Shown: positions 9,368-61,981 of the stretch, piece after piece
How the letters are laid out: each line of letters begins with the position of its first letter
Numbering within the stretch: position 1 is the stretch's first letter
DNA from: a virus
Lineage: Duplodnaviria > Heunggongvirae > Uroviricota > Caudoviricetes
Virus record (IMG/VR): IMGVR_UViG_3300006217_002764
Reading direction: 5' to 3' (one strand)
DNA length: 64,000 nt
The notes under the pieces: generated by a model
Databases searched by the model: none
Seen by the model: the letters and a program-made list of their open reading frames with translations, nothing else
What the model was told of the DNA's origin: nothing
Translations under genes and position numbers: made by a program

Positions 9368-10579
9368 ATGAAGGACTGCAAACACGGACAGGTGCGTGAG
9401 AATAAGCGATATCTCACGCTCGGTTCCACCAAGCGGGGTAAACCATGCTTATGGGATCCGGTCAAAGAAAGCGGTATGTTGCTGGTCACAGGACCGACAG
9501 GTTCGGGGAAAACCTGCCTATTGGCAATGCTGGCCACGCAGACGCTGACCAATGGAGGGCGCGTGTTCTACACGTCCTTGGCAAAAGACTCCGATTTCCC
9601 TGATGCAGTGCTCCGGCATTGCGATTCCGTCACGGGCATAGGTGACTTCGCTGGTGTGGTCGATCATCTCGAACGCCTATGTGACGAGTTGGAGCAGCGG
9701 GCTGCTCTTGTGGTGGAACACCATACGGACTCCATCTACAAGATCGACGAAAGCATGGTATCCGCTGGTGAACAGCATCTGATTGCACCCGTGACTGTGA
9801 TCATCGATGATTTCGATTACCTGTTCCAATGGTGGCACACACACCCGGAGGAATATGCCCGAAAATTGGATGTCTACAGGCTTATGGGCAGCCTTGCCGC
9901 ACTGGTGGGACGGGGACGTCTGCTCGGAATACGGTTGGCCATGGCTGCACAGCACTTCACCATCGATGATATGGTGTCGGTTCCCCCTATCGGTCATGCC
10001 CTGCGGTTCGGCGTCGAAGTGCAGACACTTCTTTCGCCACGCTGGCACGCGGACTACTTCTCCCGCTATGCCAAACAGTCAGGCATCCTCCAGCTCGCCT
10101 GTTTCGACGGCGAACAACTGGCGGATACGCACGCCGGCCTCCCACAAAAACCACGGGCGGACACAAGTGGCAAACGCGACCTGCGGTTCACCGGCGATAG
10201 TGACGACATGCATGTTCTCGTCCCGTTGAGCAATAACACGTTCGCCTGCCGGCCGGACGAATGCCCAGTGGTGTTGACCAACCACAGTACCGAGGATGAC
10301 ATCATCCTCGAATGCGCACGCTTGTTGGACATGTTGGAACCAATGCGCGACCACAGTGACCGGTTACTGCCCAGCGCGTATTGGAACACATGCAGTGCAC
10401 TGCACCAGCTGGTTGCAGCATTCACGGATTGCGATCCAAAAACCACAATCGCCCAATCATACGGGGGTCTGCCACGTGTCACCTGCCTGCATGGGGAATT
10501 CGACTCATGGGAAGCGTACGCGCAACATGCAATCCACTACACGCCTGAACCGGATAATGGGAAAGGAGTGGAATCATGA
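9368..10579 (+). CDS. FtsK/SpoIIIE- or VirD4-like P-loop ATPase (putative conjugative coupling/translocase protein)
   Basis: Walker A LVTGPTGSGKTCLL and Walker B-like VTVIIDDFD. ATG at 9368 overlaps the stop of the upstream small ORF. Confidence 0.55.
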   Translation: MKDCKHGQVRENKRYLTLGSTKRGKPCLWDPVKESGMLLVTGPTGSGKTCLLAMLATQTLTNGGRVFYTSLAKDSDFPDAVLRHCDSVTGIGDFAGVVDHLERLCDELEQRAALVVEHHTDSIYKIDESMVSAGEQHLIAPVTVIIDDFDYLFQWWHTHPEEYARKLDVYRLMGSLAALVGRGRLLGIRLAMAAQHFTIDDMVSVPPIGHALRFGVEVQTLLSPRWHADYFSRYAKQSGILQLACFDGEQLADTHAGLPQKPRADTSGKRDLRFTGDSDDMHVLVPLSNNTFACRPDECPVVLTNHSTEDDIILECARLLDMLEPMRDHSDRLLPSAYWNTCSALHQLVAAFTDCDPKTTIAQSYGGLPRVTCLHGEFDSWEAYAQHAIHYTPEPDNGKGVES

Positions 10580-20821: not shown

Positions 20822-20971
20822 GGAGTTTCCATGCCTGTACGGGGATGCCCAGGTCGAACCGCCCCTCCCACTCACGCAGGTAGGAGTGTCCTCGCTTGTA
20901 CGGGGCATCCGCAGACCGTCCACCAGACGAATCTCACCAGTCTGGAGTGTCCTCGCTTGTACGGGGCATCC
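20822..20971 (-). CRISPR. mini CRISPR-like array (3 repeats of 28 nt, 2 spacers of 32-33 nt)
   Basis: Identical repeats GGAGTGTCCTCGCTTGTACGGGGCATCC at 20883-20910 and 20944-20971 (plus strand). A degenerate copy GGAGTTTCCATGCCTGTACGGGGATGCCC sits at 20822-20850. Spacers are unique. The degenerate repeat is distal to a conserved promoter motif at 21236-21266 on the minus strand, which gives a leader of about 270 nt. Confidence 0.4.
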
Positions 20972-21235
20972 CCTATCCAAACCGTTGCAAAACCAAGGTT
21001 CTGCAACATTAGGGAACCCGAAAAACTTCAGCTTGCCCCACACGCGTGGACATGACCACCTTGCGGCGGTCAGCTTCAAGTCTCACACCACCAGTTCGAC
21101 GGCTGCTTGATAGGCGTTTCATCGAACCTGTCCAGCAAACCCGAAGGTGGCTGGCACTGGGTTCTCCACGCCCGTTGTCCGTATCCGCCACACTCTCGAA
21201 AAGTGTGGTTCGTGTCCTGCACAAGCCTCTTATGC

Positions 21236-21266
21236 AGCTGTCTTCAGTATAGCACATACATGTTTA
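21236..21266 (-). promoter_or_regulatory. conserved promoter motif upstream of the CRISPR-like array
   Basis: Minus-strand reading gives catgtatgtgcTATACTgaagacagc. Partial match to the element-wide motif. Confidence 0.4.
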
Positions 21267-29072: not shown

Positions 29073-30362
29073 ATGTCCTCCAAAACCGGCAGCATGATCG
29101 CAGCAGGCGCCGCAGCAGCGATCGCACCAATCCTCATAATGACCACCATGACCACCAGCATGCTCTCCGGCATGGGCACCATCATCGCCACCGAAGCAGG
29201 GAACGCCGCAATCAACGCCAGTGCCGCCGATTGCGAAGAGACCACGGAAACCACCGTTGCGACGATAAGTATCGGCAAGCTGGAAGGCGACAGCACTGCC
29301 GCCCGTCTCGCGAACGCGTTCTCCAAGGCCGGGTTCTCCAAGGAAGCAACTGCGGGAATGATGGGCAATGTGCAATGGGAGTCGGGGTTCCGCGCCGATT
29401 CCATCAATGAGATCGGCGCCACGGGAATCATGCAATGGTATCCAGGCAGCAAGATCACCGACTGGTTCAACACGCAGGACGACCTCAAGGGCCGGCCGGC
29501 CACTGACGAGGAAGGCCAGATCCGCATGGCGGTGTGGGTCGGACAGGACACCAGCTCGTGGAACAATGTGTTTCTATCCAAGGCCAAGGCCGAGGGGATG
29601 CGCGCCATCGGCGACGATCTCTACCGGTCGTGGCGGGAGGCGTCCAGTCCGGAGGATGCGGCCCTCGCTTGGCATTGGGGGTTCGAACGTGCCGACGATT
29701 CGACCGGGCCACGACGGCAGACCGCCGCACGCGGTTTCTACGACAAGGGGCTGGAAGGGCTTTCATTCACTGGGAAACCCAACAGTGACAACACCGCCGA
29801 GACAACCTCAACGCGGTGCAGCACAACCAACGGAGGATCCAGTGGGAACGTCAAAGCAGGATCCGCGGGCGGTGCGCCGGATGATACCGACAATTATGCG
29901 TGGATGTGTTCCGCGATCGGCGTATGCAAGGACGGCGACGGGTTCGAAGGCAGCCCGAAAGTCAAGTATCCGCACAACGTGTCAAGGTACCAGTGCGTGT
30001 GGTATGCGTGGAACCGTCTCGGTATGATCCACGGCAACGACGGATGGGATACGGTCATGGGCAACGGTGGCGTCATCGCCTCCAATCTGCAAGGAAAACC
30101 CGGATGGACCGTGGACGGCTCTCCCCACCCCGGGGACGGAGTGAGCCAATTGGGTGGCGCATTGGGCGGGGACACGTCGGTCGGGCACGTCGCCGTCGTC
30201 GAGGATGTGAAGACGGAAGGCGGCAAATGGAAGATACGCATCAGCGAGGGCAACTGCGACGGTACCGGTGCTGGCAACTGGACCGGATACCGGACCCGTT
30301 GGCTCACACAGGACCAGTTCGCGGGCGCCCAGGTGTTCTTCCGCAACGGCGCATGGAAATAG
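29073..30362 (+). CDS. secreted/membrane cell-wall hydrolase (lysozyme-like domain plus CHAP amidase/peptidase domain)
   Basis: N-terminal hydrophobic segment and a muramidase-like region (MGNVQWESGF...IMQW). C-terminal CHAP-type Cys...His signature (QCVWYAWNRLG ... GHVAVVEDV). Confidence 0.65.
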   Translation: MSSKTGSMIAAGAAAAIAPILIMTTMTTSMLSGMGTIIATEAGNAAINASAADCEETTETTVATISIGKLEGDSTAARLANAFSKAGFSKEATAGMMGNVQWESGFRADSINEIGATGIMQWYPGSKITDWFNTQDDLKGRPATDEEGQIRMAVWVGQDTSSWNNVFLSKAKAEGMRAIGDDLYRSWREASSPEDAALAWHWGFERADDSTGPRRQTAARGFYDKGLEGLSFTGKPNSDNTAETTSTRCSTTNGGSSGNVKAGSAGGAPDDTDNYAWMCSAIGVCKDGDGFEGSPKVKYPHNVSRYQCVWYAWNRLGMIHGNDGWDTVMGNGGVIASNLQGKPGWTVDGSPHPGDGVSQLGGALGGDTSVGHVAVVEDVKTEGGKWKIRISEGNCDGTGAGNWTGYRTRWLTQDQFAGAQVFFRNGAWK

Positions 30363-31717: not shown

Positions 31718-31830
31718 ATGTGTGACCCTTTCCGTGGTTTGTGGACAAGTTCAGTGTAGCATATTATGGATGTAATGCCGGTATAGGCCAGTACAATAAA
31801 CAACCAACGCAACCCGATGGGAGGGCGGAC

Positions 31831-32802
31831 GTGACTACAAAGAAAACCGATGGGAAACACAGCGGCAAACCACCGATCCCGATGACCATGCGGCAACTCG
31901 AACTCGCCGCCGACATCGACACGCATACCCCCACACCGCAACAGGTCGGCTACGGTCATTCGATTCTCACCGCGACCCTTTACCCCGCCGTCCCCCCGGC
32001 GCCCGGCACTGACTTCGTCTCCAAACGCAACGGCAGTTTCGAATACATGCTCGAGGCGGGCGTGGATGAAGAGACCCATGAACGAGATTTCCCATATGGC
32101 AAATACCCGAGGCTCATCATGGCGTGGATGGCGAAACAGATACGTTCCGCTCATGGCCATAGGACGGACACGGTGGACCCCGAGACGAGGACCATCACCA
32201 TCCCCACCATCAACCGCCTATGTGACGAGATGGGTGTGGGACATGGCGGCAAGACCGCAGAAGCGGTGCAGGAGCAGTTGAGGCGATTGCTTGCGGCGCG
32301 CATCAGCGTCCGCCGTCGTGGGGGCTTCTCCGAGCGGAAGGGCAACAAGGTCAGCCAGATCCTCTACCTGCCGTTCGCCCGCGCCATCGAGTATACGGAC
32401 GATGAGCGGGGGCGTGCCTATTCGGGTGCGAGGTTCATATTGACGGAGGACGCGTATGAACGGCTTAAATTGGAGAGTGCCCCGTTTGACACGAGGGTCA
32501 GCGAGTATCTGTTGGCAGGACGTTCTGTGATGCCGTATGACCTGTATCTGTGGCTCAACGGGTCGATGGCGGGGTTGACCCATCCGGTCACGGTGTCATG
32601 GGAATGGCTGTATGAGCAGTTCGGTGATGGGATTGCGAGTATGAGCCGGTTCAAGGCGACGTTCAAGCGTGCGTTGGCGAAGGTGCTGGAGGTGTATCCG
32701 GCTGCGAATGTGTCGGTTCCCCCGCGGGGCGAGGGTGTGGTGCTCAAGCCGTCGTTGACAAGTGTGGAGATGCGTGATCCGAAACATGGTTTGTCGCGAT
32801 AG
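31831..32802 (+). CDS. putative replication initiator (Rep-like DNA-binding protein)
   Basis: GTG start after RBS GGGAGGG. The gene ends inside the first iteron copy and is followed by a tandem iteron array and an AT-rich stretch. No catalytic motif. Confidence 0.45.
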   Translation: MTTKKTDGKHSGKPPIPMTMRQLELAADIDTHTPTPQQVGYGHSILTATLYPAVPPAPGTDFVSKRNGSFEYMLEAGVDEETHERDFPYGKYPRLIMAWMAKQIRSAHGHRTDTVDPETRTITIPTINRLCDEMGVGHGGKTAEAVQEQLRRLLAARISVRRRGGFSERKGNKVSQILYLPFARAIEYTDDERGRAYSGARFILTEDAYERLKLESAPFDTRVSEYLLAGRSVMPYDLYLWLNGSMAGLTHPVTVSWEWLYEQFGDGIASMSRFKATFKRALAKVLEVYPAANVSVPPRGEGVVLKPSLTSVEMRDPKHGLSR

Positions 32803-33020
32803 TCCCCACGTTGAGCAGAGATTCTTGTTGCAATACCGTCCAGCTTGCTTTCTGGGGCCAGTGAACTGGGTTATTTAGTGGAGCAGCTGCTTGATGGACA
32901 CAAGATACGGGAGCACAAGGGGACTATCGCGATAAAAACAAACACGGAAAGACCGTCACGCACAGCTCCATAGCAATATTTCATGCCCTGCCGCAAGATT
33001 GAGGGGACTATCGCGACAGG
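32797..33020. repeat. iteron copies (one direct, two inverted) flanking the rep gene 3' end
   Basis: TTTGTCGCGATAGTCCCCAC at 32797, with inverted copies GGGGACTATCGCGA at about 32911 and 33003. Confidence 0.6.
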
Positions 33021-33720: not shown

Positions 33721-33736
33721 ATCGGCAGTAGGGCTG

Positions 33737-33897
33737 AGGTGGAATCGTTTGTCGCGATAGTCCCCATGTTTTGTCGCGATAGTCCCCATTTTCATTCGCG
33801 ATAGTCCCCATTTTCATTCGCGATAGTCCCCACGGTTTTGGCCCCTAACCCCCTGTTTGTCGCGATGGTCCCCATAGTTTTGTCGCGATAGTCCCCA
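33737..33897 (+). repeat. iteron array, 6 direct copies of TTTGTCGCGATAGTCCCCAT at 22-24 bp spacing
   Basis: Copies at about 33740, 33762, 33786, 33809, 33852 and 33876, with minor variants (TTCATTCGCGATAGTCCCCA, GCGATGGTCCCCA). Confidence 0.7.
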
Positions 33898-34936: not shown

Positions 34937-35688
34937 CACCGGAACACGAAGCGAGGCGGACCATTGAATCCGCAAGACGGCAAAGCCGAGCCATCGCCAG
35001 CCGTTCCACCCCACTCAGGGCGATTGAATGGCTTCTTGAAATGGAGTCCAACATCGCACGATTGATGGGGACGCTCGTCGCACATGCCATCAGTGACGGG
35101 TGTGATGTGCGGATGGTGGCCGCCGCGCTCCGCGTGTCGGAAAACACCGTGCGCAACAAGTGGGGAAGCCAGATCGAACAAGCACGAGACGGACGCCTAG
35201 CGTCTCTAAGCCAAGCGCACTATCCGTCCCTGTGGGAACAGCGGTTGGTGGAACAAGCCAAACGCATCAACACCGAAGACCCGAATCAGGCTCTCGAATG
35301 GATCCGCAGTGTATTCGCGCAATGGTTGGTACTGCTCGACAACTGGGTTCAGACAGCATTCGAACACGGGTATGGCGTCAAGGACATCGCCGGCATCATG
35401 GGTATTGAGCCGGCCACCGTGTCTCGAAAATACAAGACGGCCATCGCGCGTGCGAACTTGGCGCGAACCCGTGCCGAGGCATTCCCCGTACCCATCCTCC
35501 CCCATTGGCGCGCCTTCCAGCATGATTGCTACCAGCAAGGGGTCAAGGCAACCATTGCTGCGTTTGCCTCCAAATACCCACAGGCGAATTATTCAGCGGT
35601 ATGGCGCGCGATCCATCGAGAGCTCTGCGCTTCCGTCGACGACCCATGCCAAGCTGTGGGCGACCGAAAGGATCCTCCGCGAACATGA
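34933..35688 (+). CDS. DNA-binding regulator with two sigma-70 region-4-like HTH segments
   Basis: TTG start overlapping the previous stop. HTH-like segments VSENTVRNKW and IMGIEPATVSRKYKTAI. Confidence 0.45.
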   Translation: MTPEHEARRTIESARRQSRAIASRSTPLRAIEWLLEMESNIARLMGTLVAHAISDGCDVRMVAAALRVSENTVRNKWGSQIEQARDGRLASLSQAHYPSLWEQRLVEQAKRINTEDPNQALEWIRSVFAQWLVLLDNWVQTAFEHGYGVKDIAGIMGIEPATVSRKYKTAIARANLARTRAEAFPVPILPHWRAFQHDCYQQGVKATIAAFASKYPQANYSAVWRAIHRELCASVDDPCQAVGDRKDPPRT

Positions 35689-35909
35689 ACCGTGACCCCC
35701 GCAGCCTCGACCCGTTGGCACTCCCCCTGCACCAATATGTCATGCTCGACACCGAAACCACCGGATTGGATCCGAGGACGGGGGCAAGACTGCTGGAGAT
35801 CGGCATCCTACAAGGTGAATCCCCAGCCGTGGTAGAAGACGTCTCCGATGTGTGGTGTGCGGGTGGTGGTGTTCATGGCGTCGCTCCTTGGTGCATGGGT
35901 TTTCGTTGA
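35688..35909 (+). pseudogene. N-terminal fragment of a DEDD (DnaQ-like) 3'-5' exonuclease
   Basis: Exo I motif VMLDTETTGLDPRTGARLLEIGIL, then the ORF ends after 74 aa. The truncation point coincides with a copy of the second conserved promoter/5'UTR motif. Confidence 0.45.
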
Positions 35910-35950
35910 CAAAACTAACTATAGTCCAATCAGTTTATTCAAGCAAGTTT
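35884..35950 (-). promoter_or_regulatory. conserved promoter/5'UTR palindrome motif (type 2), minus-strand copy
   Basis: Minus-strand reading gives ctgattggacTATAGTtagttttgtcaacgaaaaccc...AAGGAG and an ATG opening a 22-codon micro-ORF. Confidence 0.45.
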
Positions 35951-36061
35951 CGGAGCGTCGCGGTGGCACAAGGGCACGATAAATGTGAACCATATATATT
36001 ACATGTGTATATGGAGAGCAGCGCGTTTCCGTGCGACATGCCGAATCTTGTATATGTATAC

Positions 36062-36114
36062 TGATTGGGCTATAGTAGTGTTTGTCAACGAAAACACCAC
36101 ACAAGGAGAAGCGC
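36062..36114 (+). promoter_or_regulatory. conserved promoter/5'UTR palindrome motif (type 2)
   Basis: ctgattgggcTATAGTagtGTGTTTgtcaacgAAAACACcacaCAAGGAGaagcgcATG. Confidence 0.5.
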
Positions 36115-36636
36115 ATGAACCCCGCGACCAACCCCAACAACACCGCCGGCACCGAGTTCGCCCGCGTGCATGACTACCTGCACGGCCGCCGCCCCTTAGA
36201 TGCTAGCCTCGCTTCTGTCGCGGCGTCCATGCTGTCCATGCGGCTGGCCGTGCGCGACGCGCTCATTCTCGCGGCCATACGCCCCGACGCGGTGGACGCG
36301 GACACGATGTACGCATTCGCATTCACCCCGCACGAGCCGCACACCGCGACGCTCATGAGCCGCCTGCTCACCAATGCATTCGACACCGGCGACGGCTACG
36401 AGCCACAGGTCATCGAACGGTTCGACGAACTCGTAAAGGCCGCGTCAAACGAACAGGACGCGCCGGCCGCGCAATGCCTCGCCGTGCGCGCCTACCTCGC
36501 ATGGTGGCAGCGCGACAGGGACACCGCGATGCGCTACGCAGTCGAAGCGTTGGACATCAGCGAGGATTGCACGCTCGCGGCCATCGTGCTCGCCGCCTTC
36601 TCCCGCGGTATCCTGCCGCGCGGTCAGGAGCGATGA
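36115..36636 (+). CDS. hypothetical protein
   Basis: ATG 7 nt after the conserved AAGGAG. Confidence 0.5.
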   Translation: MNPATNPNNTAGTEFARVHDYLHGRRPLDASLASVAASMLSMRLAVRDALILAAIRPDAVDADTMYAFAFTPHEPHTATLMSRLLTNAFDTGDGYEPQVIERFDELVKAASNEQDAPAAQCLAVRAYLAWWQRDRDTAMRYAVEALDISEDCTLAAIVLAAFSRGILPRGQER

Positions 36637-36885
36637 CATAGATCGGCCCTGTTTCGGCGGAGTGCGACCCGGCCCCCTCTTGTCGCGAAAGACAGGGAGG
36701 GGCCGGTCGCGTTTCCTGCTGCCTGGGTAGTGTTCGCCAACGGATTCGACTGTAGCGTTGTCGGGATATTCGTTCGGGTTCGCGAAAGATGCCATGTCAC
36801 TTGTGTTCGCGGGGTTCTTCGTTGATATGATTGCTGTGGGCGTGGATTACTGGAGGCGTGAGCGACGCGCCAAGACTTGAGTTAA

Positions 36886-36944
36886 TACTCTGATTGAGCT
36901 ATAGTGGTGTTTGTCAACGAAAACACCGCCCAAGGAGCAACACC
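36886..36944 (+). promoter_or_regulatory. conserved promoter/5'UTR palindrome motif (type 2)
   Basis: ctgattgagcTATAGTggtGTGTTTgtcaacgAAAACACcgccCAAGGAG. Confidence 0.5.
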
Positions 36945-37274
36945 ATGAAGACCCTCACCTACCATGCCGACACCCACACCACCATCATCAACGAATGCGA
37001 CGAAGATAATGCCCTCGCCCACCTTCAGCACGAGGTCGGCGGATACGTCGAACACGTGGACGCCTCCCCGTTGGGTGTCGACGGACTCGACATCTGGATC
37101 AACGACATGGGCGCCGCCGACGGACTGCCGTACGCTTTCAGCCTGCCCCACCCTGGCGGTCGCGTGGACCTGTTCGGCAATGTCGTGTTCACCCGCTGCG
37201 ACGAATATGGCGACACCATCGGCCTGACCGACGGCGACATCAAGGCGCTTGAGGCCAAGCTGCACGCGGCGTAA
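36945..37274 (+). CDS. hypothetical protein
   Basis: 109-aa ORF driven by the type-2 motif. Confidence 0.5.
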   Translation: MKTLTYHADTHTTIINECDEDNALAHLQHEVGGYVEHVDASPLGVDGLDIWINDMGAADGLPYAFSLPHPGGRVDLFGNVVFTRCDEYGDTIGLTDGDIKALEAKLHAA

Positions 37275-37392
37275 GCCCATAGGATGACTGTGCCGGATAC
37301 GGGAAAGGGGCGCCGCGGCGCCCCCAGTGAACTTTTTCCGCGGACTTGGCGGATAAGCTGTATACCATTGTACCCGGAAAGGAAGGTGGCGC

Positions 37393-37785
37393 ATGGTTGC
37401 CGACCCACAGATCACAGTGGAACACACCGAAGACGGCGTGCTGCTCACGATCACTGACGCCGCGAGGCTCTCGCTGCCATTGTCCGCCTCCATGGCACAC
37501 ACCTTGGCGACGATGATCGACACATGCATGAAGACAGGCGAACGGCAGACTACTGGTTCGGTGGACGTGTGGCGCGCCCGCCCCGGCGCCTACGGGCTGC
37601 ACCTTGTGGTCAACAGGGTATCGTGGACGTGCCCGGCAATGGAATCATGGGCGATCGAGGAGATCGCCGACGGCTTGGAGGCGGTGCCGTTGGAGGACGG
37701 GAAGCGGGGTCGCACCTTGCTTGACGAGCTCTCCGCAGAAGTGAACCCGGAGGACATGCTTGACAATCCGTTGAGGCGCGAGTAG
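37393..37785 (+). CDS. hypothetical protein
   Basis: 130-aa ORF. Confidence 0.45.
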   Translation: MVADPQITVEHTEDGVLLTITDAARLSLPLSASMAHTLATMIDTCMKTGERQTTGSVDVWRARPGAYGLHLVVNRVSWTCPAMESWAIEEIADGLEAVPLEDGKRGRTLLDELSAEVNPEDMLDNPLRRE

Positions 37786-37869
37786 GGCGCCAGACCTCGC
37801 TGCCGGCGGGTGGCTCCCGGTGGGCTTCGAGCGCTGTATATAATGTGATAGGAAAGGACAACGTGGAGC

Positions 37870-38853
37870 ATGGATCGACTTGACGACGAGAACATCGCGC
37901 TGCTCACGCTGCTCTACTCCTGCAAACGACCCGACAGTTGGAAGAGCCTGACTAACCAGTGTCTGGTCGAGGGAAGCGCGCGGCGGGTGTTGATGAACCG
38001 GCTGGACGCGCAAAGCAACCCGTTGCGCGAATTCGACGAGGTAGAACCCGAAGATTTCGCCTTGTTCCCCGAACCGTTGAGCGACGCGCGCCAGCGAGAA
38101 TACGACGCCGCGGCTAGGGAAGCAGAGCGAGACTACGACGAGTGGATGCGCGCCGAGTTGAGGTTCGTCAGCATCTTCGATTCCGACTATCCGCATCTGC
38201 TGCTTGATAGCGTGGACGCCCCGCCGTTCATGTTCTCCAAAGGCCTGCTTCTGTCTGACGATCGTGGTGTCAGTGTCGTAGGGTCGCGCCATGCCAGTCC
38301 GCAAGGTCTGGAGTTCGCGCAGGAAGTCGCAGCGATGCTCGCGAAGCGGAGTTTGACCGTTGTCGCAGGATTGGCCGAAGGTGTGGATACCGCGGCGCAT
38401 CAGGCTGCATTGGATGCCGGTGCGAGGACCGTCGCGTTCATCGGCACCGGCATCAACCGCGCCTACCCCGCATCCAACCGTGCTTTGCAGGAACGCATAG
38501 CGCATGAAGGATTGGTGTTGTCCCAGTTCAAGCCGGACGCGCCACCGACTCGCCAGACGTTCCCTATGCGCAACGCGGTCATGTCATCCTACGGGTTGGC
38601 GTCCGTCATCTGCGACGCCGGGGAACATTCCGGCACGCGCATCCAAGCAAGGCAGGCCATGCAGCACGGCCGGCCGATCATCTTCCGTCAGCAGGTCGTT
38701 GAGCAGACGCGATGGGCGCATAGCTATCTGGACAAGCCCAACGTGTACGTTGCTCGCACCGTAAACGATGTGGCGCGGTTCATTGACGCCATCTTCCACA
38801 CGGCGCTTGTGCAGGTGGACGACGACTATCTGCGTATACCGTTGGGAGTGTGA
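37870..38853 (+). CDS. dprA: DprA/Smf-like DNA-processing protein (Rossmann/SLOG fold)
   Basis: VVGSRHASPQG...VVAGLAEGVDTAAHQAALDAG...FIGTGINRAYP...FPMRNAVMS...VICDAGEHSGTRIQARQAMQHGRPI matches the DprA core. TATAAT at about 37832. Confidence 0.7.
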   Translation: MDRLDDENIALLTLLYSCKRPDSWKSLTNQCLVEGSARRVLMNRLDAQSNPLREFDEVEPEDFALFPEPLSDARQREYDAAAREAERDYDEWMRAELRFVSIFDSDYPHLLLDSVDAPPFMFSKGLLLSDDRGVSVVGSRHASPQGLEFAQEVAAMLAKRSLTVVAGLAEGVDTAAHQAALDAGARTVAFIGTGINRAYPASNRALQERIAHEGLVLSQFKPDAPPTRQTFPMRNAVMSSYGLASVICDAGEHSGTRIQARQAMQHGRPIIFRQQVVEQTRWAHSYLDKPNVYVARTVNDVARFIDAIFHTALVQVDDDYLRIPLGV

Positions 38854-39668
38854 TGATGGACGGGGCCAGTGAAATCCGCAGACGGCATGAGGCGTCATTG
38901 GCGGCCACGGTGGGCAGTTTCGCACAGAGCGTCGTCTACCGCAGTACCAGAGATCACGTCTGCCCTATCTGTGGCGGGGCAAAGAAAGATGGATACGCGT
39001 GGTGTGTCTCATGTAGCGCCCATCATCATTCGCCATACAAGGCGCAGCTGGCGGATATGGTTCGCATCTTCGCGTATGCGCCGATGGAATGCTCCAGCGA
39101 TGTATCCAATCAGATGACACGGTACATGTACCGATACAAGGAAGACCGGGCCGGTTCCGAACTGGCGCAGGCGGCGGTCACAGAGATTCTGGTCACGGAG
39201 CTGGTGTTGCGTTGGGGCTGCATAAAAGAGGTCTCGGGAGGCGTAGCGCCTACCGCGTGGTCAACCATCCCCTCGACCACGAACAGCCCGAGGGCCGGTA
39301 TCGAGCATCCTTTGCATCGCATTGTCCGTCAGGTTTTGCCCCGTGTCCCGGAGGTCAAGCTGAGGGCGGTAGGCGCGAAAGGCAGGAGCTTGTCGCCTGA
39401 TCTGTTCCAGATGGAGTGCGAGTGTGCGCCTGACACGCTTCGGCATGTGTTGCTGATCGATGACACGTGGGCCACCGGGGGCAATGTGCAGTCGGCCGCG
39501 GTCTCGTTGAAGCGCGCCGGCGCGCAACGGGTCACGGTGTTCTGTGTGGCGCGTGTTGTGAACTATGCGTTTTGCGCCTCGATAGGCGAGGGGGTGGCGG
39601 ACGGTTTCCGTTCGCTGTCTTTCCGCGGCGGTCAGTGGTGCCCGTGGCATTGCATGGTCGAACCGTAA
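38850..39668 (+). CDS. ComF-like phosphoribosyltransferase-fold protein with N-terminal Cys4 zinc finger
   Basis: CPICGG...CVSCS finger, then the PRPP-binding signature HVLLIDDTWATGGNVQSAAVSLKRAGAQRVTVFCVAR. Start overlaps the dprA stop. Confidence 0.6.
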   Translation: MMMDGASEIRRRHEASLAATVGSFAQSVVYRSTRDHVCPICGGAKKDGYAWCVSCSAHHHSPYKAQLADMVRIFAYAPMECSSDVSNQMTRYMYRYKEDRAGSELAQAAVTEILVTELVLRWGCIKEVSGGVAPTAWSTIPSTTNSPRAGIEHPLHRIVRQVLPRVPEVKLRAVGAKGRSLSPDLFQMECECAPDTLRHVLLIDDTWATGGNVQSAAVSLKRAGAQRVTVFCVARVVNYAFCASIGEGVADGFRSLSFRGGQWCPWHCMVEP

Positions 39669-39710
39669 CGTGCTTTGTTGTGGCGTATGTTTTGCGGCGG
39701 CTTGCAATAA

Positions 39711-39768
39711 TAATCTGATTGGGCTATAGTTGTGGTTGTCAACGAAAACACACCACAAGGAGACCATC
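39711..39768 (+). promoter_or_regulatory. conserved promoter/5'UTR palindrome motif (type 2)
   Basis: ctgattgggcTATAGTtgtggttgtcaacgAAAACACaccaCAAGGAGaccatcATG. Confidence 0.5.
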
Positions 39769-40563
39769 ATGGACACCAAGCAAAGCGCCACCCTGTTGTG
39801 CGCCGCTATCGACAAGGACGGCGAACCATACACCACACAGATTGTCGCCTTCATCTCCCCCGGCCTGCCGTACTTCTCGATCATCGGCATGCCCGACACC
39901 TTTTTGGGAGGCGTACGCGAACGCATCCACACCGCCATGGGTGCACAAGGGTTCACATGGCCCGCCACGCGCGTCACGGCCAACATCATGCCCGCCAGCA
40001 GGCACAAGGACGGGCGCGCGCACGAACTCGCCGTCGCCGCCAGCATCCTGTGCGCCAACGGTGTCCTGGACAAAGCGCTGTTCGACCATGCGGCCCTGAT
40101 CGGCCGCCTCGACGACGATGGAGACTGGCATAGCGGCGGGCGCATCCAGCGCGTCGAACACCTGCCCGAACTCGTACGCCATCTCGCTACGCAGGATGTG
40201 CGCACCATCATCATTCCCGCAGCAAACACGGATGTCGAACCCATCGACGGCGTACGGTTCATCCGCGTATCCACGTTGGCGGACCTGACCACCATCAATG
40301 AAGGCACCCGGCCAGTGTGCGACCGTATCGACCGGTTGGTGAATGAGGCGCGCGGCGTCATGGACACCCGGCAGGAAGAACTATTGGACGCGCGCATCCG
40401 GGAACTCGAAGACGCAGTGGACACGCTCAACAGCGTCATCGAACAAGAAGAACGCGACCCCAACGCACGGGAATCGGCCGACATCGCCGAAGCCGAACAA
40501 ACCATCGACGAACTACAGGACCAGCTCGACACACTGAACGACAAGGAAAGGGAAGAATATTGA
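39769..40563 (+). CDS. ComM/YifB N-terminal-domain protein lacking the AAA+ ATPase module
   Basis: ISPGLPYFSIIGMPDTFLGGVRERIHTAMGAQGFTWPATRVTANIMPASRHKDGRAHELAVAASIL aligns to the ComM N-terminal (Lon-like) domain. The C-terminal half is an acidic coiled-coil. No Walker motifs. Confidence 0.55.
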   Translation: MDTKQSATLLCAAIDKDGEPYTTQIVAFISPGLPYFSIIGMPDTFLGGVRERIHTAMGAQGFTWPATRVTANIMPASRHKDGRAHELAVAASILCANGVLDKALFDHAALIGRLDDDGDWHSGGRIQRVEHLPELVRHLATQDVRTIIIPAANTDVEPIDGVRFIRVSTLADLTTINEGTRPVCDRIDRLVNEARGVMDTRQEELLDARIRELEDAVDTLNSVIEQEERDPNARESADIAEAEQTIDELQDQLDTLNDKEREEY

Positions 40564-41027
40564 AAGCACCCGACACCGACCAAGCGACCCGCTTGGCCCG
40601 CGGCCAACGGTTAAAAACCATGCGCACGGCCGCAGGCCTGTCGCAAAGCCAACTCGCCGCATCCATGAGCGCACGCTACAGCGTCAGCCGCTACGAGACC
40701 GGCAGCCGCGACGCGGGCAACATGACCCTGGGAATGGCAAGCAAACTCGCCACCGCCCTAGGCATGGACGTGGACACCTTCACCCAAACCCTATTGGACA
40801 TCCCCGCGTGGCCCACCCTGCCCGCACGCCGCTACGAAACCCTCAAACGCCGCCTACGCCGCCTCGACCACACCCAAGCATGGCTCGCCGAACAGACCGG
40901 ACTCACCCCGTTGCAGGTCAGCCGGTACGCGACCGGCAATACGTACCTGACCCAGTTGAGCCTGGAACGCGCCACCCGGATCGCGCAGGCCCTGCAAGCG
41001 GACCTCGCGGACTTGTCGCAATGGTGA
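40560..41027 (+). CDS. tandem XRE-family HTH transcriptional regulator
   Basis: TTG start overlapping the upstream stop. Two Cro/C1-type HTH units (LKTMRTAAGLSQSQLA and AWLAEQTGLTPLQVSRYATG). Confidence 0.55.
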   Translation: MKAPDTDQATRLARGQRLKTMRTAAGLSQSQLAASMSARYSVSRYETGSRDAGNMTLGMASKLATALGMDVDTFTQTLLDIPAWPTLPARRYETLKRRLRRLDHTQAWLAEQTGLTPLQVSRYATGNTYLTQLSLERATRIAQALQADLADLSQW

Positions 41028-41078
41028 TCGAGGCTGCCGCGACTTGCACAAGTGTATCCCTTGAGATACAATCATGGT

Positions 41079-41390
41079 ATGAGGATACTAACCACCAGAG
41101 AGTACGAGCGCTGGCTCTCGAAACTCAAAGACAAACAAGCGAAAGCGCGAATCATCCTCAAAACAAACCAGATCCAGCAAAGCGGCATCAAGACCGCCGA
41201 CTTCAAACACGTGGGACGGGAGGTTCTGGAACTGCGGTTCCACTTCGGAGCCGGATACCGCGTATATTGCGCCACCAAGCAAGACACCCTGCTCCTGCTG
41301 CTCACAGGCGGAGACAAAAGCTCCCAGCGCAAGGACATCGAAACCGCTCAACGGCTTCTGGATGAAGCCAGAAAGGAACATCAATGGTGA
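41079..41390 (+). CDS. HigB/RelE-superfamily addiction-module killer protein
   Basis: REYERWLSKLKDKQAKARI...VGREVLELRFHFGAGYRVYCATKQDTLLLLLTGGDKSSQ matches the addiction-module killer family. Confidence 0.6.
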   Translation: MRILTTREYERWLSKLKDKQAKARIILKTNQIQQSGIKTADFKHVGREVLELRFHFGAGYRVYCATKQDTLLLLLTGGDKSSQRKDIETAQRLLDEARKEHQW

Positions 41391-41671
41391 ACATCAGCGA
41401 ATGGGACGCCAGCGAATACCTCGACGACGAGGAAACCATCCTCGAATACCTCAACGCCGCCGCCCAGGCAGGCGACCCCCGGCTGCTCCAAACCGCACTT
41501 GGGGACGTCGCCAAAGCACGTGGCATGGCACAGGTCGCCAAAGACGCCGGAGTCGGCCGTGAAAGCCTGTACAAGAGCCTCAGCCCAAGTGGCAACCCAT
41601 CGTTCGGCACGATCATGAAAGTCGTACGTTCTTTGGGCGGGCGCATCACCATCGAACCCGCCGCCGTCTAA
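41384..41671 (+). CDS. HigA-type HTH antidote protein
   Basis: ATGGTGA overlap with the toxin gene. DPRLLQTALGDVAKARGMAQVAKDAGVGRESLYKSLS matches the addiction-module antidote family. Confidence 0.6.
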   Translation: MVNISEWDASEYLDDEETILEYLNAAAQAGDPRLLQTALGDVAKARGMAQVAKDAGVGRESLYKSLSPSGNPSFGTIMKVVRSLGGRITIEPAAV

Positions 41672-42021
41672 CCCGGAAAACTGCGGCTGCCCCGTCCGAA
41701 CATGTGTCGGACGGGGCAGCCGTGGTAGAGAAAATGCCGGCACGACAAAACATGCCGGACGACACAAGTTAGCGTACCACAATCCGGCACCAGCACCGGC
41801 GGGCAGCTGCGCGATCAGCGCCGTATGCAACGGCAGACAGGAACGGATACGGCTGGCGGTTCGACAGTTGAGCACAACAAAAGGGTGTGATAGCCGAAAC
41901 TTCCAGCCATCACACCCTGAAATACCCTTTGGTTGTTTAATGTCAACGAAAACACCCAAGGAGCACAAACCAGTATAACACGTTTAGATACTAACAGCAG
42001 CCCAAATCCCGCCCATGCTGG

Positions 42022-44042: not shown

Positions 44043-44115
44043 GTGGGCTGGCGGGATTCGAACCCGCGACCTCCGGATTAAACGTCCGGTGCTCTGTCCT
44101 CTGAGCTACAGCCCC
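44043..44115 (-). tRNA. tRNA-Lys(TTT)-like with unusual G33 (anticodon loop cgTTTaa)
   Basis: Hand-folded. D-stem gctc/gagc, anticodon stem ccgga/tccgg, T-arm gcggg-TTCGAAT-cccgc. 1:72 is G:A. Confidence 0.45.
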
Positions 44116-44256
44116 GCGCATGCCCACCGTCATGATCGGCCGGATATGCGGGATGCGTTCACCATCGCCTTATGGTGTTGCCGAAGATGGCGTGTCTTCG
44201 ACCGTTCCGATCTTTAATAGGATCGTAGACGAGCCTGCACCAAGGCCCGACCTGCG

Positions 44257-44325
44257 TGGGGCGGCCGGATTCGAACCAGCATCCGCTAGCGCTCTGCCAT
44301 TTGAGCTACGCCCCCGGTGGGATGG
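44257..44325 (-). other. truncated tRNA-like element (acceptor, D-arm and T-arm but no anticodon arm)
   Basis: About 64 nt. gggggcg-ta-gctcaaatggcagagc...gctgg-TTCGAAT-ccggc-cgcccc. Confidence 0.35.
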
Positions 44326-44413
44326 CGATCAACCCATCCCCTCCACCTGCACCGATACCGGTGGGGCCCCGTATTGGCGGGGCCATCGGCTCGGGGATAC
44401 CGGTCCGATCGGA

Positions 44414-44484
44414 ACCGGAATCGCACACCGGGATGGAATCGAACCACCGCCTGCGGTTTTGGAGACCGCCGTCCTACCATTGGA
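44414..44484 (-). tRNA. tRNA-Trp(CCA)
   Basis: Hand-folded. Anticodon loop ctCCAaa on stem gcggt/accgc, D-stem gtcc/ggac, T-loop TTCGATT, acceptor with two G-U pairs. Confidence 0.55.
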
Positions 44485-44659
44485 CCACCGGCATATATGG
44501 TGCGCGTCCCTCATGGGCAACGCACCACCGTCCCATGCGTCCGCCTACCATCACGACCTATAGCCACGCCCCTTGATGGGCACAACAACGCCGCTCGGCA
44601 AGCCGACCACACGGGCCCGCATCCAAAACCGTCAACTGGCGTTCCGGTTGGATGCCTCG

Positions 44660-44732
44660 CAGGCGAGGCAGGATTCGAACCTGCAACCCACGGTTCCAAA
44701 GACCGTCGTGCTGCCAATTGCACCACTCGCCT
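44660..44732 (-). tRNA. tRNA-Gln(TTG)
   Basis: Acceptor aggcgag/ctcgcct perfect, D-stem gtgc/gcac, anticodon loop ctTTGga, T-arm gcagg-TTCGAAT-cctgc. Confidence 0.6.
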
Positions 44733-44947
44733 ATACCATGCGGCCTATGCGGCCGCGATGGTCACGGTTTGCGCGCCCAATCACCCGCTGGGCACCCTCC
44801 GCCGGTGCCGGAGGAGACGGACATTGCCCGCCTGTACGCCACCATGCTCTGCTTGGTCTGCCACGACAAGGTGGATGCCGCGGGAAGCCCGTATCATGGA
44901 CCCCTATGCCTGCCCATTGGACGCCGGGCAGGTGGCGTATCCTTTCG

Positions 44948-45020
44948 TGCTTTCGGCGGGATTCGAACCCGCGGCCTTCCGCTCCGGAGGCGGACGCCCT
45001 ATCCACTGGGCCACGAAAGC
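44948..45020 (-). tRNA. tRNA-Arg(CCG)
   Basis: Acceptor gctttcg/cgaaagc perfect, D-arm gccc-agtggata-gggc, anticodon loop ctCCGga, T-arm gcggg-TTCGAAT-cccgc. Confidence 0.65.
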
Positions 45021-45059
45021 GTAGTGTCCAGCGCCGTGCCAACGGCTGTGCACGTGCCT

Positions 45060-45110
45060 GATACGCACCGTGCGTGGAATCGAACCACGATCGGGATCGC
45101 CACCATAACC
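45060..45110 (-). other. tRNA fragment (isolated T-arm hairpin)
   Basis: cgtgg-TTCGATT-ccacg without matching acceptor or D-arm. Confidence 0.3.
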
Positions 45111-45233
45111 CGGTCGCCGCCCCCGCACCCCATACCGGGAGGGGCCGCACCACCAACCACACCGCTTTCATATCAGTACTCACGGCCAGCCGCGTGCGCA
45201 ACCGGTTCACAGCGCTTTCCAGCTCTGGACTCG

Positions 45234-45307
45234 TGCCCCCGGCAGGATTCGAACCTGCGACCGGACGGGTAGAAACCGTCTGCTCTGATCCACTGAGCTA
45301 CAAAGGC
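45234..45307 (-). tRNA. tRNA-Arg(TCT)
   Basis: D-arm gctc-agtggat-cagagc, anticodon loop ttTCTac on stem gacgg/ccgtc, T-arm gcagg-TTCGAAT-cctgc, acceptor with three G-U pairs. Confidence 0.55.
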
Positions 45308-45538
45308 AATCTCTTTCCCCCCGAGCGTATGAGTACGACCACCCGAGGGGAAAGAGCTGGAATGCCGGATTCGTTTTCACCAGCAGCGCCAAGGTACGGT
45401 GCGTGAGCTCCGTTTTAAGCGTACCGTCCGTTAGGTTACTAGCCTGACTGTGAAGCCCGAACGTGCCTTGCCCTCCATACCGTAGGGCGTTTCAGCCAAT
45501 TCCATGGACACCGAGTGATGGCCGTCACCCGGTGCCTG

Positions 45539-45613
45539 TGCTTCCCACGGGATTCGAACCCGTACTGAACTGGGTTTGAGCCAGTCACCTCTACCGGATT
45601 GGGTTAGAGAAGC
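45539..45613 (-). tRNA. tRNA-like with anticodon CAA (Leu codon UUG) but short variable arm
   Basis: Anticodon stem actgg/ccagt perfect with loop ctCAAac. T-arm acggg-TTCGAAT-cccgt. D-stem has one mismatch. Class-I architecture is atypical for Leu. Confidence 0.4.
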
Positions 45614-45712
45614 GTGACCACCTACCCCGCCTGACACGGAGCCGGCCAGCCGTCAGGAAACCAGCCTTCCATAATCGTGGCATCACAGCCGATGATCGAA
45701 CTGCTTCTTTCG

Positions 45713-45785
45713 TGCTCCCCGTGGGACTCGAACCCACAACCCAAGGCTTAAAAGGCCCCTGCTCTACCAATTGAGCTAGAAAAGC
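45713..45785 (-). tRNA. tRNA-Lys(TTT)
   Basis: D-arm gctc-aattggta-gagc, anticodon loop ctTTTaa, T-arm gtggg-TTCGAGT-cccac, acceptor with G-U pairs. Confidence 0.55.
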
Positions 45786-45817
45786 AATGGTGCACAAAAT
45801 AACCTAATCAGATTTTG

Positions 45818-45848
45818 CGAACATGTTCAGTTTAGCACATATAGACGA
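45818..45848 (-). promoter_or_regulatory. conserved promoter motif at head of tRNA array
   Basis: Minus-strand reading gives atatgtgcTAAACTgaacatgttcgc, 30 nt upstream of the first tRNA 5' end. Confidence 0.45.
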
Positions 45849-49463: not shown

Positions 49464-50192
49464 ATGAAAACATGGGAAGCCCCGATGGAAGACGAGAACG
49501 GAACCATTCTCAACCGGTACATCATCACTGAATGCGAGAGCGTGGACGATGTCCTCAGCCTTGACGCAACCGTGGAGGGACAGCGGTTGCAACGTGCGTT
49601 GACGGCACCTCATATCAGTGACATCGATGAATGGTTATGGGATTTGGAAGACAATCAGGATCCCGACGCCCTCCGCCCGGATGAGGTCGTGTTCCTCGAC
49701 GACGAGCATACGTGGTACCACGTCAAGGGATCCGGCCTATGCCTCGCGAACGGTTGCTCAGCGGAATATTGGCTGCCATACATGTTCACGGACGAGAATC
49801 GTTGGGAAACGTTCTACCTCGACCGTGACCACAGTAAACTGTTTCATTCCGGGATGCCGAGACTGTGGACAATGAACCCGTCCGCATTCATGCCCTGCAA
49901 CGATTGGCAGGAAGGATACACCGTCGCCAATCCAGAAAGACCCGCTTCCGTCTACGGTCAGCAAGACCCGTTTATCCAAGGACGCACCCCTGATGACGCG
50001 TTAATCTTCCATCAGGGCGATTCCGCCTCACCTGAAGATTGTTGTCGGGACGATTCTGTGTCAGTGTCCCTCGCGCAATACCAGAAAATATTGCGCGAGT
50101 ACGCGCCGTTCGAAGCGGTGGAGCTACGCTACCACCCCAAGAACAACACGGATGCCGGATGGACGGACATGGAACCCGCCAAGGAGGAATGA
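49464..50192 (+). CDS. hypothetical protein (paralog of 50958..51607)
   Basis: Shared blocks VDDVLSLDATVEG, VVFLDDEHTWYHVKGSGLC and SLAQYQKILREYAPF. Confidence 0.5.
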   Translation: MKTWEAPMEDENGTILNRYIITECESVDDVLSLDATVEGQRLQRALTAPHISDIDEWLWDLEDNQDPDALRPDEVVFLDDEHTWYHVKGSGLCLANGCSAEYWLPYMFTDENRWETFYLDRDHSKLFHSGMPRLWTMNPSAFMPCNDWQEGYTVANPERPASVYGQQDPFIQGRTPDDALIFHQGDSASPEDCCRDDSVSVSLAQYQKILREYAPFEAVELRYHPKNNTDAGWTDMEPAKEE

Positions 50193-50665
50193 TGAGCGCA
50201 AGAAACAAGCCAGACAACCTTGAGCAACCCGTCGTTTACAAGTGTGAGGATTGCAGCAAGCCCACGCACACCTGTGCCTGCGGGCACTGCCACAACCACA
50301 TATGGCGGTGCCTACGATGTGGTAGGAAACTCTGCGCGGAATGCGATTTCACCTTCGACGGCCTTTGCGGGGAATGCTACCGCAAGCCGGAACAAGAACT
50401 CACCTACCGGCAGCTCGCCTTCGATTCCTACCATGCCAACCACCGACTGCTCAGAAACCTCATAGAGATCCGGGAACGACACGGCATCAGCCAGGCGGAA
50501 CTCGCCGAACGCATGAACATACCCGTGCAAACCATCATCGGCATCGAGAACGGCTCACTGGAATTCCTGCCATACCTGACCGATTACGCGTTGGAAGTCG
50601 GCGCGCTCGTCGAATACAAGATCACACCATACGACATCACCATAACGGAAGGAGAACGGGAATGA
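50191..50665 (+). CDS. Cys-rich zinc-ribbon plus XRE-type HTH regulator
   Basis: CEDCS...CACGHC...CLRCGRKLCAEC...CGEC, then the HTH RERHGISQAELAERMNIPVQTIIGIENG. Confidence 0.55.
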
Positions 50666-61590: not shown

Positions 61591-61893
61591 TTATTGTCTG
61601 GCGTAGCGGCAGTGGGCTCCTTTTCCTCCTCCGTTGGCACAAGATGGACGCTTTCGGGCCCGGGCGGCGTGCAACTGGTTTATTAGGTGGCGAATCCCTT
61701 CACGACCCCAATGTGCCGGAATGGATAGCAGCAATCCACTTGAGACAATCAGACCGGTGACGGTGAGCAATGCTTCGCGCCAATCGACGACCCCATCTTG
61801 GGGCACGACCGCTCCAGCATAGGCGATGGTCAGCAATGCGACCCCGATACTGGTTCCGACGCGCAGAAGGACGGTCCGCCAATTGAGCCGCAT
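61591..61893 (-). CDS. small membrane protein
   Basis: Start MRLNWRTVLL with two TM helices. Palindromic promoter motif upstream at 61908-61960. Confidence 0.4.
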   Translation of the reverse strand: MRLNWRTVLLRVGTSIGVALLTIAYAGAVVPQDGVVDWREALLTVTGLIVSSGLLLSIPAHWGREGIRHLINQLHAARARKRPSCANGGGKGAHCRYARQ

Positions 61894-61981
61894 CTCGTCT
61901 CCATCTATATATGATAATCTGAGGCTATCCACAAATATATGGATAGCCTCAGTATACACATGGAAAAGTCGATTTGGGCCG

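Follow-up and report, generated by a model that had tools for sequence, protein, structure and literature searches.

Why does a single stretch of plasmid DNA carry nearly the same promoter and leader in front of four different transcription units, and what is the purpose of a fifth, truncated copy? The DNA in question is a sequence of 64,000 nucleotides filed as IMG/VR record IMGVR_UViG_3300006217_002764 (the window, meaning the whole stretch that was analysed), which is part of a ~135-kb Bifidobacterium pseudolongum megaplasmid, a distant relative of pMP7017. A sequence-only reading had described five copies of a promoter/leader cassette in it. This repeat is real and consists of four full cassettes (A to D) and one copy reduced to a conserved box plus the Shine-Dalgarno (SD) motif. 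From computational evidence we propose as the likelier account that a ~90-nt trans-acting antisense RNA blocks the translation of the cassette mRNAs, and that the fifth copy appears to be its gene, predicted on the minus strand. Loci for comparison were found by means of homologues of the ComM-N protein encoded behind cassette D, and fall into lineages in which this protein is 90%, 87%, 57% or 54% identical.

Architecture of the repeated cassette

In a repeat search the copies came together as one direct family of 76 nt (D8), and the minus-strand copy forms three inverted pairs (I1-I3) with the others. The 20-mer GTGTTTGTCAACGAAAACAC is present at 36078, 36907 and 39732 (the last with one mismatch), where shuffled sequences lead to an expectation of 0, and CTGATTGGGCTATAGT is found with at most one mismatch at 36061(+), 36890(+), 39715(+) and 35918-35933(-). 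All four full copies share a cTTGnnn −35 element, a spacer of exactly 17 nt ending with CTGATTGRGC, and a TATAGT −10 element, followed by 7 nt, the box GTCAACGAAAAC(A/C)C, a linker of 3-8 nt, the SD motif CAAGGAG, 6-7 nt and the ATG, so that the box starts 31-34 nt ahead of the start codon. This supports the interpretation as a repeated sigma-70-type promoter with a short 5′ leader and a ribosome-binding site (RBS), while the ~3 nt originally given between TATAGT and the GTGTTT arm is in fact 1 nt. A GC-rich element, GCGACAYGCC, sits just upstream of the −35 element and is shared as GCGACnnnCC by cassettes A, B and C, so that the cassette reaches further upstream. Across the copies the box starts 7 nt after the −10 element (6 nt in one copy), which is the expected position of +1. 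The fifth copy (41942-41964) consists solely of the box and, without a linker, CAAGGAG.

In relatives at 54-57% identity the variable parts of the cassette have diverged, whereas four blocks were kept: the −35 element, CTGATTGRGC plus −10, the box in the form GTCAAC(G/A)(A/G)AAAC(A/G)(C/T), and the SD. Two more promoters of the 57% lineage (L078 7323, 8589; L079 11659, 12928) combine a box GTCAACAAAAACA with another spacer element, GCATTACTGTAG. According to this, spacer element and box are separable modules.

Around the start of the box the sequence-only reading had noticed the inverted repeat GTGTTT-N7-AAACAC, and had suggested either a palindromic repressor operator or an RNA hairpin abutting the SD. 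We compared pairing of the arms in an alignment of 13 distinct copies, including those from relatives at 54-57% protein identity, with that in shuffles. The arms pair in 66.2% of the cells against a shuffle mean of 66.3%, and the covariation score of 0.085 (0.079 in shuffles) was reached in 225 of 500 shuffles. Columns without any variation are those of GTCAAC, which is the supposed loop, and of AA, not those of the arms. Already within the window the arms are imperfect (copy A TAGTTTTGTCAACGAAAACCC, copy D GTGGTT), and in relatives the 5′ arm reads aatgcTT, aatccT, agtggTC or GTGGCC, while compensatory substitutions in the 3′ arm are absent. Thus, the arms are not co-conserved, a result that the sequence-only reading had itself named as refuting its view, and on which both the palindromic operator and the cis hairpin fail. 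The conserved dyad symmetry expected of a site for a dimeric helix-turn-helix (HTH) protein is likewise missing from the box, which is asymmetric.

The hairpin fares no better. A cis-acting GUGUUU-N8-AAACAC structure in the 5′ untranslated region, tuning translation or mRNA stability, could form in copies B, C and D with 6-7 bp if transcripts started right after the −10 element, and its loop GUCAACGA would be complementary to the loop of the antisense RNA proposed below, allowing a kissing contact. Nevertheless, besides the lack of arm covariation, the fold energies do not differ from those of shuffles even with the 5′ arm included (z −1.2 to +1.4), and the leaders from the predicted +1 are unstructured (-1.3 to -2.7 kcal/mol, no better than shuffles). 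As the 5′ arm lies between the −10 element and the predicted +1, at positions −7 to −1, it is probably not transcribed, and the SD is outside the hairpin. We regard this explanation as highly improbable.

Cassettes A and B are divergent and separated by an AT-rich stretch (35962-36032) with a 7-bp inverted repeat, CCATATA-N11-TATATGG, which could be an operator common to both promoters.

A predicted antisense RNA and its proposed targets

The partial copy, placed at 41935 in the sequence-only reading, was said to have no downstream open reading frame (ORF). On the plus strand this holds, since neither a promoter nor an ORF was found there. The copy is not dead, though: on the minus strand it lies in an apparent antisense RNA gene, a likely regulator, made up of a promoter, an anti-leader and a terminator (Table 1). 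The first base complementary to the leaders is the eighth position after the −10 element of this small RNA (sRNA) gene. The gene occupies an intergenic gap at a distance of 2.2-6.1 kb from its four targets and is thus trans-encoded. Its promoter resembles that of a second promoter family of the plasmid (class 2, the pMP7017 motif type; see below), without the class-2 box.

The same unit is present on the minus strand in four lineages. It consists of an extended −10 element (TGTTATACT, TGCTATACT, TGCTATATT or TGCTATCCT), 7 nt, GC(A)UCCUUGGGUGUUUU(C/U)GUUGAC and, some 22 nt later, a strong GC-rich hairpin that is followed by a T-run. The box-plus-SD copy is nearly unchanged in all four, while its plus-strand flanks are unrelated; among the lineages keeping the unit, whose ComM-N proteins share 90%, 87% and 57% identity, a single base of the 21-nt anti-leader varies. 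Within the promoter GTGCTATA(C/T)T or GTGCTATCCT is kept in 4/4 lineages, even in L094 and L100, where the units are intact and a different upstream context begins just before the −10 element. A metagenome scan for the fused box-SD sequence yielded eight more true units, those of L094 and L100 among them, and three chance matches. All 21 cassette-bearing loci with a length of 12 kb or more, and the window as well, contain exactly one sRNA unit each.

Terminator stems of different lineages are unrelated in sequence, and RNAalifold reported five pairs with double compensatory changes. Each sRNA variant folds into two stem-loops (z -4.8 to -6.2 versus shuffles), of which the first has the anti-SD in its stem, and an 11-nt loop contains UCGUUGAC; the candidate stem-loop 1 of the window sRNA displays UCGUUGACAUU in its loop. 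The 5′ arm of stem-loop 1 is invariant, as it must match the target, while the 3′ arm pairs in lineage-dependent registers, so that a single consensus structure would be misleading. Searches against Rfam gave nothing at the cassettes or the sRNA, either at the gathering threshold or with E values up to 10.

Complementarity between sRNA and leader covers about 15 nt of the box and 7 nt of the SD. When the 5′ end of the sRNA was scanned for duplexes against both strands of the window, the four cassettes were the four best non-self sites, with -41.9, -38.3, -37.5 and -34.7 kcal/mol compared to a background of -16.6 +/- 3.5 kcal/mol (12,790 windows). In the 57% lineage the sRNA has a U opposite an A in three of five targets (GTCAACAAAAAC), a gain of about 4 kcal/mol over the non-cognate sRNA; the remaining two targets have a G that is still able to form G-U pairs with it.

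These observations suggest the following course of events. Each cassette would act as a strong housekeeping-sigma promoter (TTGnnn, 17-nt spacer, TATAGT), with transcription probably beginning at the G of GTCAAC, and the resulting mRNA would open with an unstructured leader of 25-35 nt, 5′-GUCAACGAAAACACC-(3-14 nt)-CAAGGAG-N6-7-AUG. The sRNA, presumably produced constitutively in plasmid-bearing cells, would pair with the 5′ end and the RBS of every cassette mRNA and block ribosome binding, turning off four operons together; the duplex might also undergo cleavage. The outcome would be a single post-transcriptional regulon comprising the DUF3846/DprA/PRTase operon, the ComM-N/XRE/toxin-antitoxin operon and small unknown genes, and coordinated control of the downstream operons, already suggested by the sequence-only reading, is retained here as the most sensible interpretation. 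In addition, the conservation of CTGATTGRGC and GCGACAYGCC would point to a second level of control that probably depends on a protein, perhaps the XRE protein encoded in the operon itself. As a new recipient cell still has no sRNA, we infer that transfer would be followed by a burst of cassette-gene expression and then by shut-off, and DprA, ComM-N and the exonuclease would suggest a role in establishment.

Several points weigh against this interpretation. Both transcription start sites are predicted from the spacing to the −10 element alone, the sRNA promoter has no good −35 element, and the co-variation of the targets depends on one nucleotide position. Stem-loop 1 is no more than suggestive: with only the 3′ part shuffled, folds as good were obtained in 5/1000 cases for L075 and 18/1000 for L078, which is significant, but in 93/1000 for the window and 146/1000 for L077, which is not. 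The 54% lineage (L086-L089) has the cassette and no sRNA was seen in it, its contigs being at most 4 kb long and one of them interrupted by an insertion sequence (IS). The idea of establishment genes is drawn from gene content only; no oriT or relaxase was located. Furthermore, the complementarity is partly circular, because a relic cassette copy would also be complementary on the opposite strand; what carries the argument is consequently that promoter and terminator are conserved on the minus strand and that the plus strand lacks a promoter. Finally, the box might be recognised by a DNA-binding protein, which could act alongside the sRNA.

Such a protein might even be the whole explanation. 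A plasmid repressor would then bind GTCAACGAAAAC at +1 and block initiation, the fifth copy being an extra operator on a small minus-strand unit; candidates would be the XRE protein with two HTH domains that operon D encodes (40560-41027) and the XRE protein at ~50191-50665. The predicted +1 does fall in the box, whose distance from the −10 element is fixed, an XRE gene lies within one regulated operon in every lineage, the spacer CTGATTGRGC and the upstream GCGACAYGCC look like protein sites, and the authors of the pMP7017 study took the sister motif for a transcription-factor site (PMC10832533). Nevertheless, the box is asymmetric without a conserved dyad, and the sister box of pMP7017 occurs once between cistrons with no upstream −10 element (60373+). 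An operator also leaves unexplained why in the fifth copy the SD complement is fused directly to the box, and why this copy lies between a conserved promoter and a terminator of the opposite strand in four lineages. We consider the operator unlikely as the sole explanation, while giving it some weight. A possible likeness of GTGGTTGTCAACG to the mycobacteriophage L5 stoperator GGTGGMTGTCAAG was dropped, since the conserved block here continues in the 3′ direction with AAAAC and the SD and is matched by an RNA complement.

A further possibility is that no dedicated regulation exists and that a promoter-RBS module was spread by recombination or gene conversion, with the fifth copy as a decaying relic near an unrelated promoter and terminator. 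The cassettes are indeed recombination joints. In the hybrid cassette of L069 (~9920-10000) the upstream part of B is joined to the downstream part of D, the crossover lying within the box, and five genes have been lost; the gene behind cassette B encodes 173 or 109 amino acids (aa) depending on the variant (e.g. L071 3440-3500); and cassette C is absent in L076 (7863) and L077 (7291), where DUF3846 lacks its own cassette C. Boundaries between modules are marked by the cassettes, which explains the swap or deletion of modules among plasmid variants. PeSL cassettes of T4-type phages are comparable, being ~70-nt regulatory repeats on either side of small accessory genes, at which recombination shuffles or deletes modules (PMC2839356, PMC4122927), and like these the present cassettes are repeated joints between gene modules, as seen in the L069 hybrid and the variable gene behind B. 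They differ in that PeSL combines a terminator stem-loop with an early promoter, while the cassette has no supported stem-loop and includes leader and SD; for PeSL no trans-acting RNA is known. Spreading without regulation does not account for the preservation of four cassette blocks at 54-57% identity while the variable parts diverged, nor for a "relic" that is kept nearly base for base with its flanks replaced and always together with promoter and terminator. It therefore appears quite unlikely to us.

The proposed antisense RNA resembles known regulators in part. RNA-OUT of IS10, a small RNA, has its own promoter and terminator, is complementary to the 5′ end and initiation region of RNA-IN, blocks ribosome binding and works in trans on every copy, known as multicopy inhibition (PMC5006887). 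Judged in silico, the sRNA predicted here likewise has its own promoter and an intrinsic terminator and is complementary to the 5′ end and SD of its targets. However, the gene for RNA-OUT lies opposite its target, to which the RNA is complementary over 35 uninterrupted nt, whereas the present sRNA gene is 2-6 kb away from its targets, which are four different operons with only the leader in common, and the pairing is interrupted by a variable linker. Bifidobacteria are not known to have Hfq. Short, structured, constitutive RNAs of mobile elements that pair at or near an RBS and thereby repress key genes are represented by FinP/traJ, CopA/CopT, c4 of phage P1 and CI of P4, of which c4 and CI act on short repeated target sequences. 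Each of these addresses one gene or transcript, whereas here one RNA would address several promoters via a leader tag. KorA/KorB of RK2 and the leading-region regulon of ArdK on R388 place many plasmid promoters under one repeated palindromic, protein-bound operator. The cassettes would share with them a repeated control element and coordinated, probably transfer-linked expression; unlike those operators, the cassette element is asymmetric, transcribed and matched by an RNA complement.

The anti-leader sRNA is a new proposal towards which we lean on purely computational grounds. Small-RNA regulation in bifidobacteria and gene control on their megaplasmids are almost unexplored, and the repeated promoter motif of this plasmid family has so far been interpreted in print only as the site of an unidentified transcription factor. 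If true, a single trans-acting RNA addressing several operons via a common leader would provide a concrete mechanism. The cassette operons carry functions of the type used on incoming DNA (DprA, ComM-N, exonuclease, DUF3846) together with a toxin-antitoxin pair. Metagenomes of the mouse gut contain the plasmid extremely often, so that such a mechanism would matter for how it times these genes. The leader and anti-leader would also be a compact orthogonal pair for Bifidobacterium genetic tools.

Table 1 Location of the cassettes, the predicted sRNA gene and other features in the window
Feature	Position	Strand	Details
Cassette A	35884..35961	-	−35 TTGCTT 35946-35941; −10 TATAGT 35923-35918; predicted +1/box GTCAACGAAAACCC 35910-35897; SD CAAGGAG 35890-35884; ATG 35876
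Cassette B	36033..36117	+	−35 TTGTAT 36048-36053; −10 36071-36076; predicted +1/box 36084-36098; SD 36102-36108; ATG 36115
Cassette C	36862..36947	+	−35 TTGAGT 36877-36882; −10 36900-36905; predicted +1/box 36913-36927; SD 36931-36937; ATG 36945
Cassette D	39687..39771	+	−35 TTGCAA 39702-39707; −10 39725-39730; predicted +1/box 39738-39751; SD 39756-39762; ATG 39769
Predicted ~90-nt anti-leader sRNA	41874..41964	-	anti-leader and terminator
Promoter of predicted sRNA	41972..41985	-	extended −10 TGTTATACT; TG 41980-41979; TATACT 41977-41972
5′ 23 nt of predicted sRNA	41964-41942	-	GCUCCUUGGGUGUUUUCGUUGAC, exact reverse complement of box plus SD
Terminator hairpin of predicted sRNA	41918-41882	-	17-bp stem, then UUUUGUUG (T-run)
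Micro-ORF	35808..35876	-	22 codons, by translation
Gene behind cassette B	36115-36636	+	173-aa hypothetical gene
Operon of cassette C		+	DUF3846 36945-37274; 130-aa gene 37393-37785; DprA 37870-38853; PRTase-like 38850-39668
Operon of cassette D		+	ChlI/ComM-N 39769-40563; two-HTH XRE 40560-41027; Gp49/HigB-like 41079-41390; HigA-like 41384-41671
Class-2 boxes			5141(+), 15529(-), 17216(+), 28971(-), 29035(+), 31745(-), 34043(+), 56131(-), 59102(-), 61928(+), 62917(-), 62991(+); weaker 21230-21260, 45813-45843
RepA_C replicase	31741-32802		adjoins seven 22-bp iterons at 33730-33897
Seven-tRNA array	44043-45785	-	Lys x2, Trp, Gln, Arg x2, Leu; weaker Rfam tRNA match at 44256-44315

The published pMP7017 motif as a sister class

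A 34-bp promoter motif, 5′-AWAYATGY TATACT GAATATGTCCACATAAAAWA-3′, was described for pMP7017 (Microb Biotechnol 2024, PMC10832533). It was reported in 19 copies ahead of about 56 genes, marks highly expressed promoters, was found only on such plasmids and was read as a likely transcription-factor site; no antisense RNA is reported in that paper (PMC10832533). The window contains this motif as a second, larger family, ATATGTGCTATACTGAAC..(G/A)TCCACAAAAC (ATATGTGCTATACTGAAC..GTCCACAAAAC), with at least 14 copies on both strands. AWAYATGY-TATACT is found in this family and also in the sRNA promoter. Back-to-back divergent pairs occur among the class-2 copies (28959/29021, 62905/62964).

The cassette is a distinct, new sister class of the published motif. 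In both, a repeated promoter has a conserved block that runs from the spacer across the −10 element into the transcript start, followed by an RBS, and heads several operons; as with the motif, the cassettes sit within about 60 bp upstream of start codons on a plasmid of the pMP7017 type. The two classes differ in the spacer ((T)GATTGRGC versus AWAYATGY, 4/8 matches), in the −10 element (TATAGT versus TATACT, 5/6) and in the box, in which GTCAACGAAAAC agrees with GTCCACATAAAA at 8/12 positions and lies one base further from the −10 element. Our scan of pMP7017 gave 22 copies of the motif, with the conserved block continuing via a short leader to the RBS, and neither a cassette copy nor a GTCAACRRAAAC promoter copy. 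The copy between two cistrons mentioned above (pMP7017 60373, +; L083 10373) consists of the class-2 box plus SD without an upstream −10 element, so the class-2 box is not always tied to a promoter.

As a tentative extension that we hold to be possible but doubtful, the megaplasmids could work with a leader address code in which promoter classes tag mRNA 5′ ends and each tag is read by its own anti-leader RNA. In an established host entire groups of operons would then be kept silent, transfer being followed by a burst of their expression, and the transcribed half of the pMP7017 motif would be an RNA target, not a transcription-factor site. Two loci are candidates for an anti-class-2 sRNA and provide a lead, not a result. 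On pMP7017 (NZ_KM406416.1) positions 147743-147900(+) (L084 47743-47900) comprise TTGAGA-17-TACAGT followed by CUUUCCUUUUGAAGAUUUUUUUAUGUGGAC, a hairpin and T8; in a duplex scan of pMP7017 with this segment nearly all motif leaders came out on top (-24 to -34 versus -10.4 +/- 3.0 kcal/mol). The syntenic region of B. longum NZ_CP084013.1, ~80010-79860(-) (L105 ~29860-30010), preserves the promoter-like site and T(C/T)TATGTGGAC, followed by a hairpin of unrelated sequence with its T-run. Both candidates contain the complement of the box GUCCACAUA(A/G)A and lie just upstream of a class-2 promoter. A minus-strand coding sequence annotated by PGAP over the pMP7017 locus is probably spurious.

In the window a near-perfect palindrome at 61905-61960 holds the class-2 box in a 12-bp hairpin stem (TGAGGCTATCCA / TGGATAGCCTCA), and the ATG of a minus-strand gene follows at 61892. 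It was rejected as an anti-class-2 sRNA, because it is a class-2 promoter and leader with a hairpin and has no terminator.

Genes behind the cassettes and the plasmid setting

The sequence-only reading was correct about the ChlI/ComM-N gene, the hypotheticals and the truncated RNase_T-type exonuclease among the downstream genes, and requires correction for cassette C, which heads a DUF3846 gene and, further on, DprA (Table 1). Moreover, the micro-ORF behind cassette A, formerly placed at 35818-35883 and counted as a member of the regulon, has different boundaries and is a remnant: it comprises the first 20 codons of a 117-aa gene, which in L064 reads MNTATRTPHIGDVFYHGWGF... The window lacks the segment L068 4850-6047, and this 1.2-kb deletion also truncated the RNase_T-type exonuclease gene, leaving a remnant at 35685-35909 (+). 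In sister plasmids cassette A heads genes of 117 and 141 aa. The plasmid DprA/PRTase-like/ComM-N cluster (37870-40563) echoes a chromosomal comM-dprA neighbourhood in L092 (1203-4035), and the plasmid ComM retains only the N-terminal ChlI/Lon-like domain.

The window belongs to a megaplasmid family of the mouse gut. Its proteins recur on contigs of 132-144 kb in very many mouse-gut metagenomes (1081 blocks indexed for the ComM-N protein), and NCBI isolates with matching proteins carry the host name Bifidobacterium pseudolongum. The closest described plasmids are pMP7017 of B. breve and megaplasmids of B. longum, with 48-49% identity of the VirB4-like ATPase (49% between window and pMP7017). 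No close relative was found in PLSDB, INPHARED, IMG/VR or the GTDB representative genomes; megablast of 20 kb against PLSDB and INPHARED gave matches limited to IS605/TnpB and tRNA, and the cassette itself gave nothing but chance matches. The promoter-plus-box pattern and the sRNA pattern had 0 matches each in the GTDB representative genomes. In IMG/VR the pattern TGTCAACGAAAACN{3,12}CAAGGAG matched twice in a coding sequence (one gene on two contigs) and CTGATTGRRCTATAGT gave 55 single scattered matches; both were taken as chance.

Besides the genes listed in Table 1, the window encodes ParA, an FtsK-like ATPase, a VirB4-like AAA_10 ATPase, a lysozyme/CHAP hydrolase, RNA-repair enzymes and three TnpB elements. 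The probable replication origin consists of seven or eight 22-bp iterons with the core TCGCGATAGTCCCCA (33730-33897 plus 32772-32830), downstream of the RepA_C gene. tRNA genes are present on pMP7017, too. At 20822-20971, three 28-nt repeats (GGAGTGTCCTCGCTTGTACGGGGCATCC) with a period of 61 nt resemble a mini-CRISPR array, which adjoins an Rfam match to Transposase-2 RNA (21049-21120, -) and a class-2 promoter.

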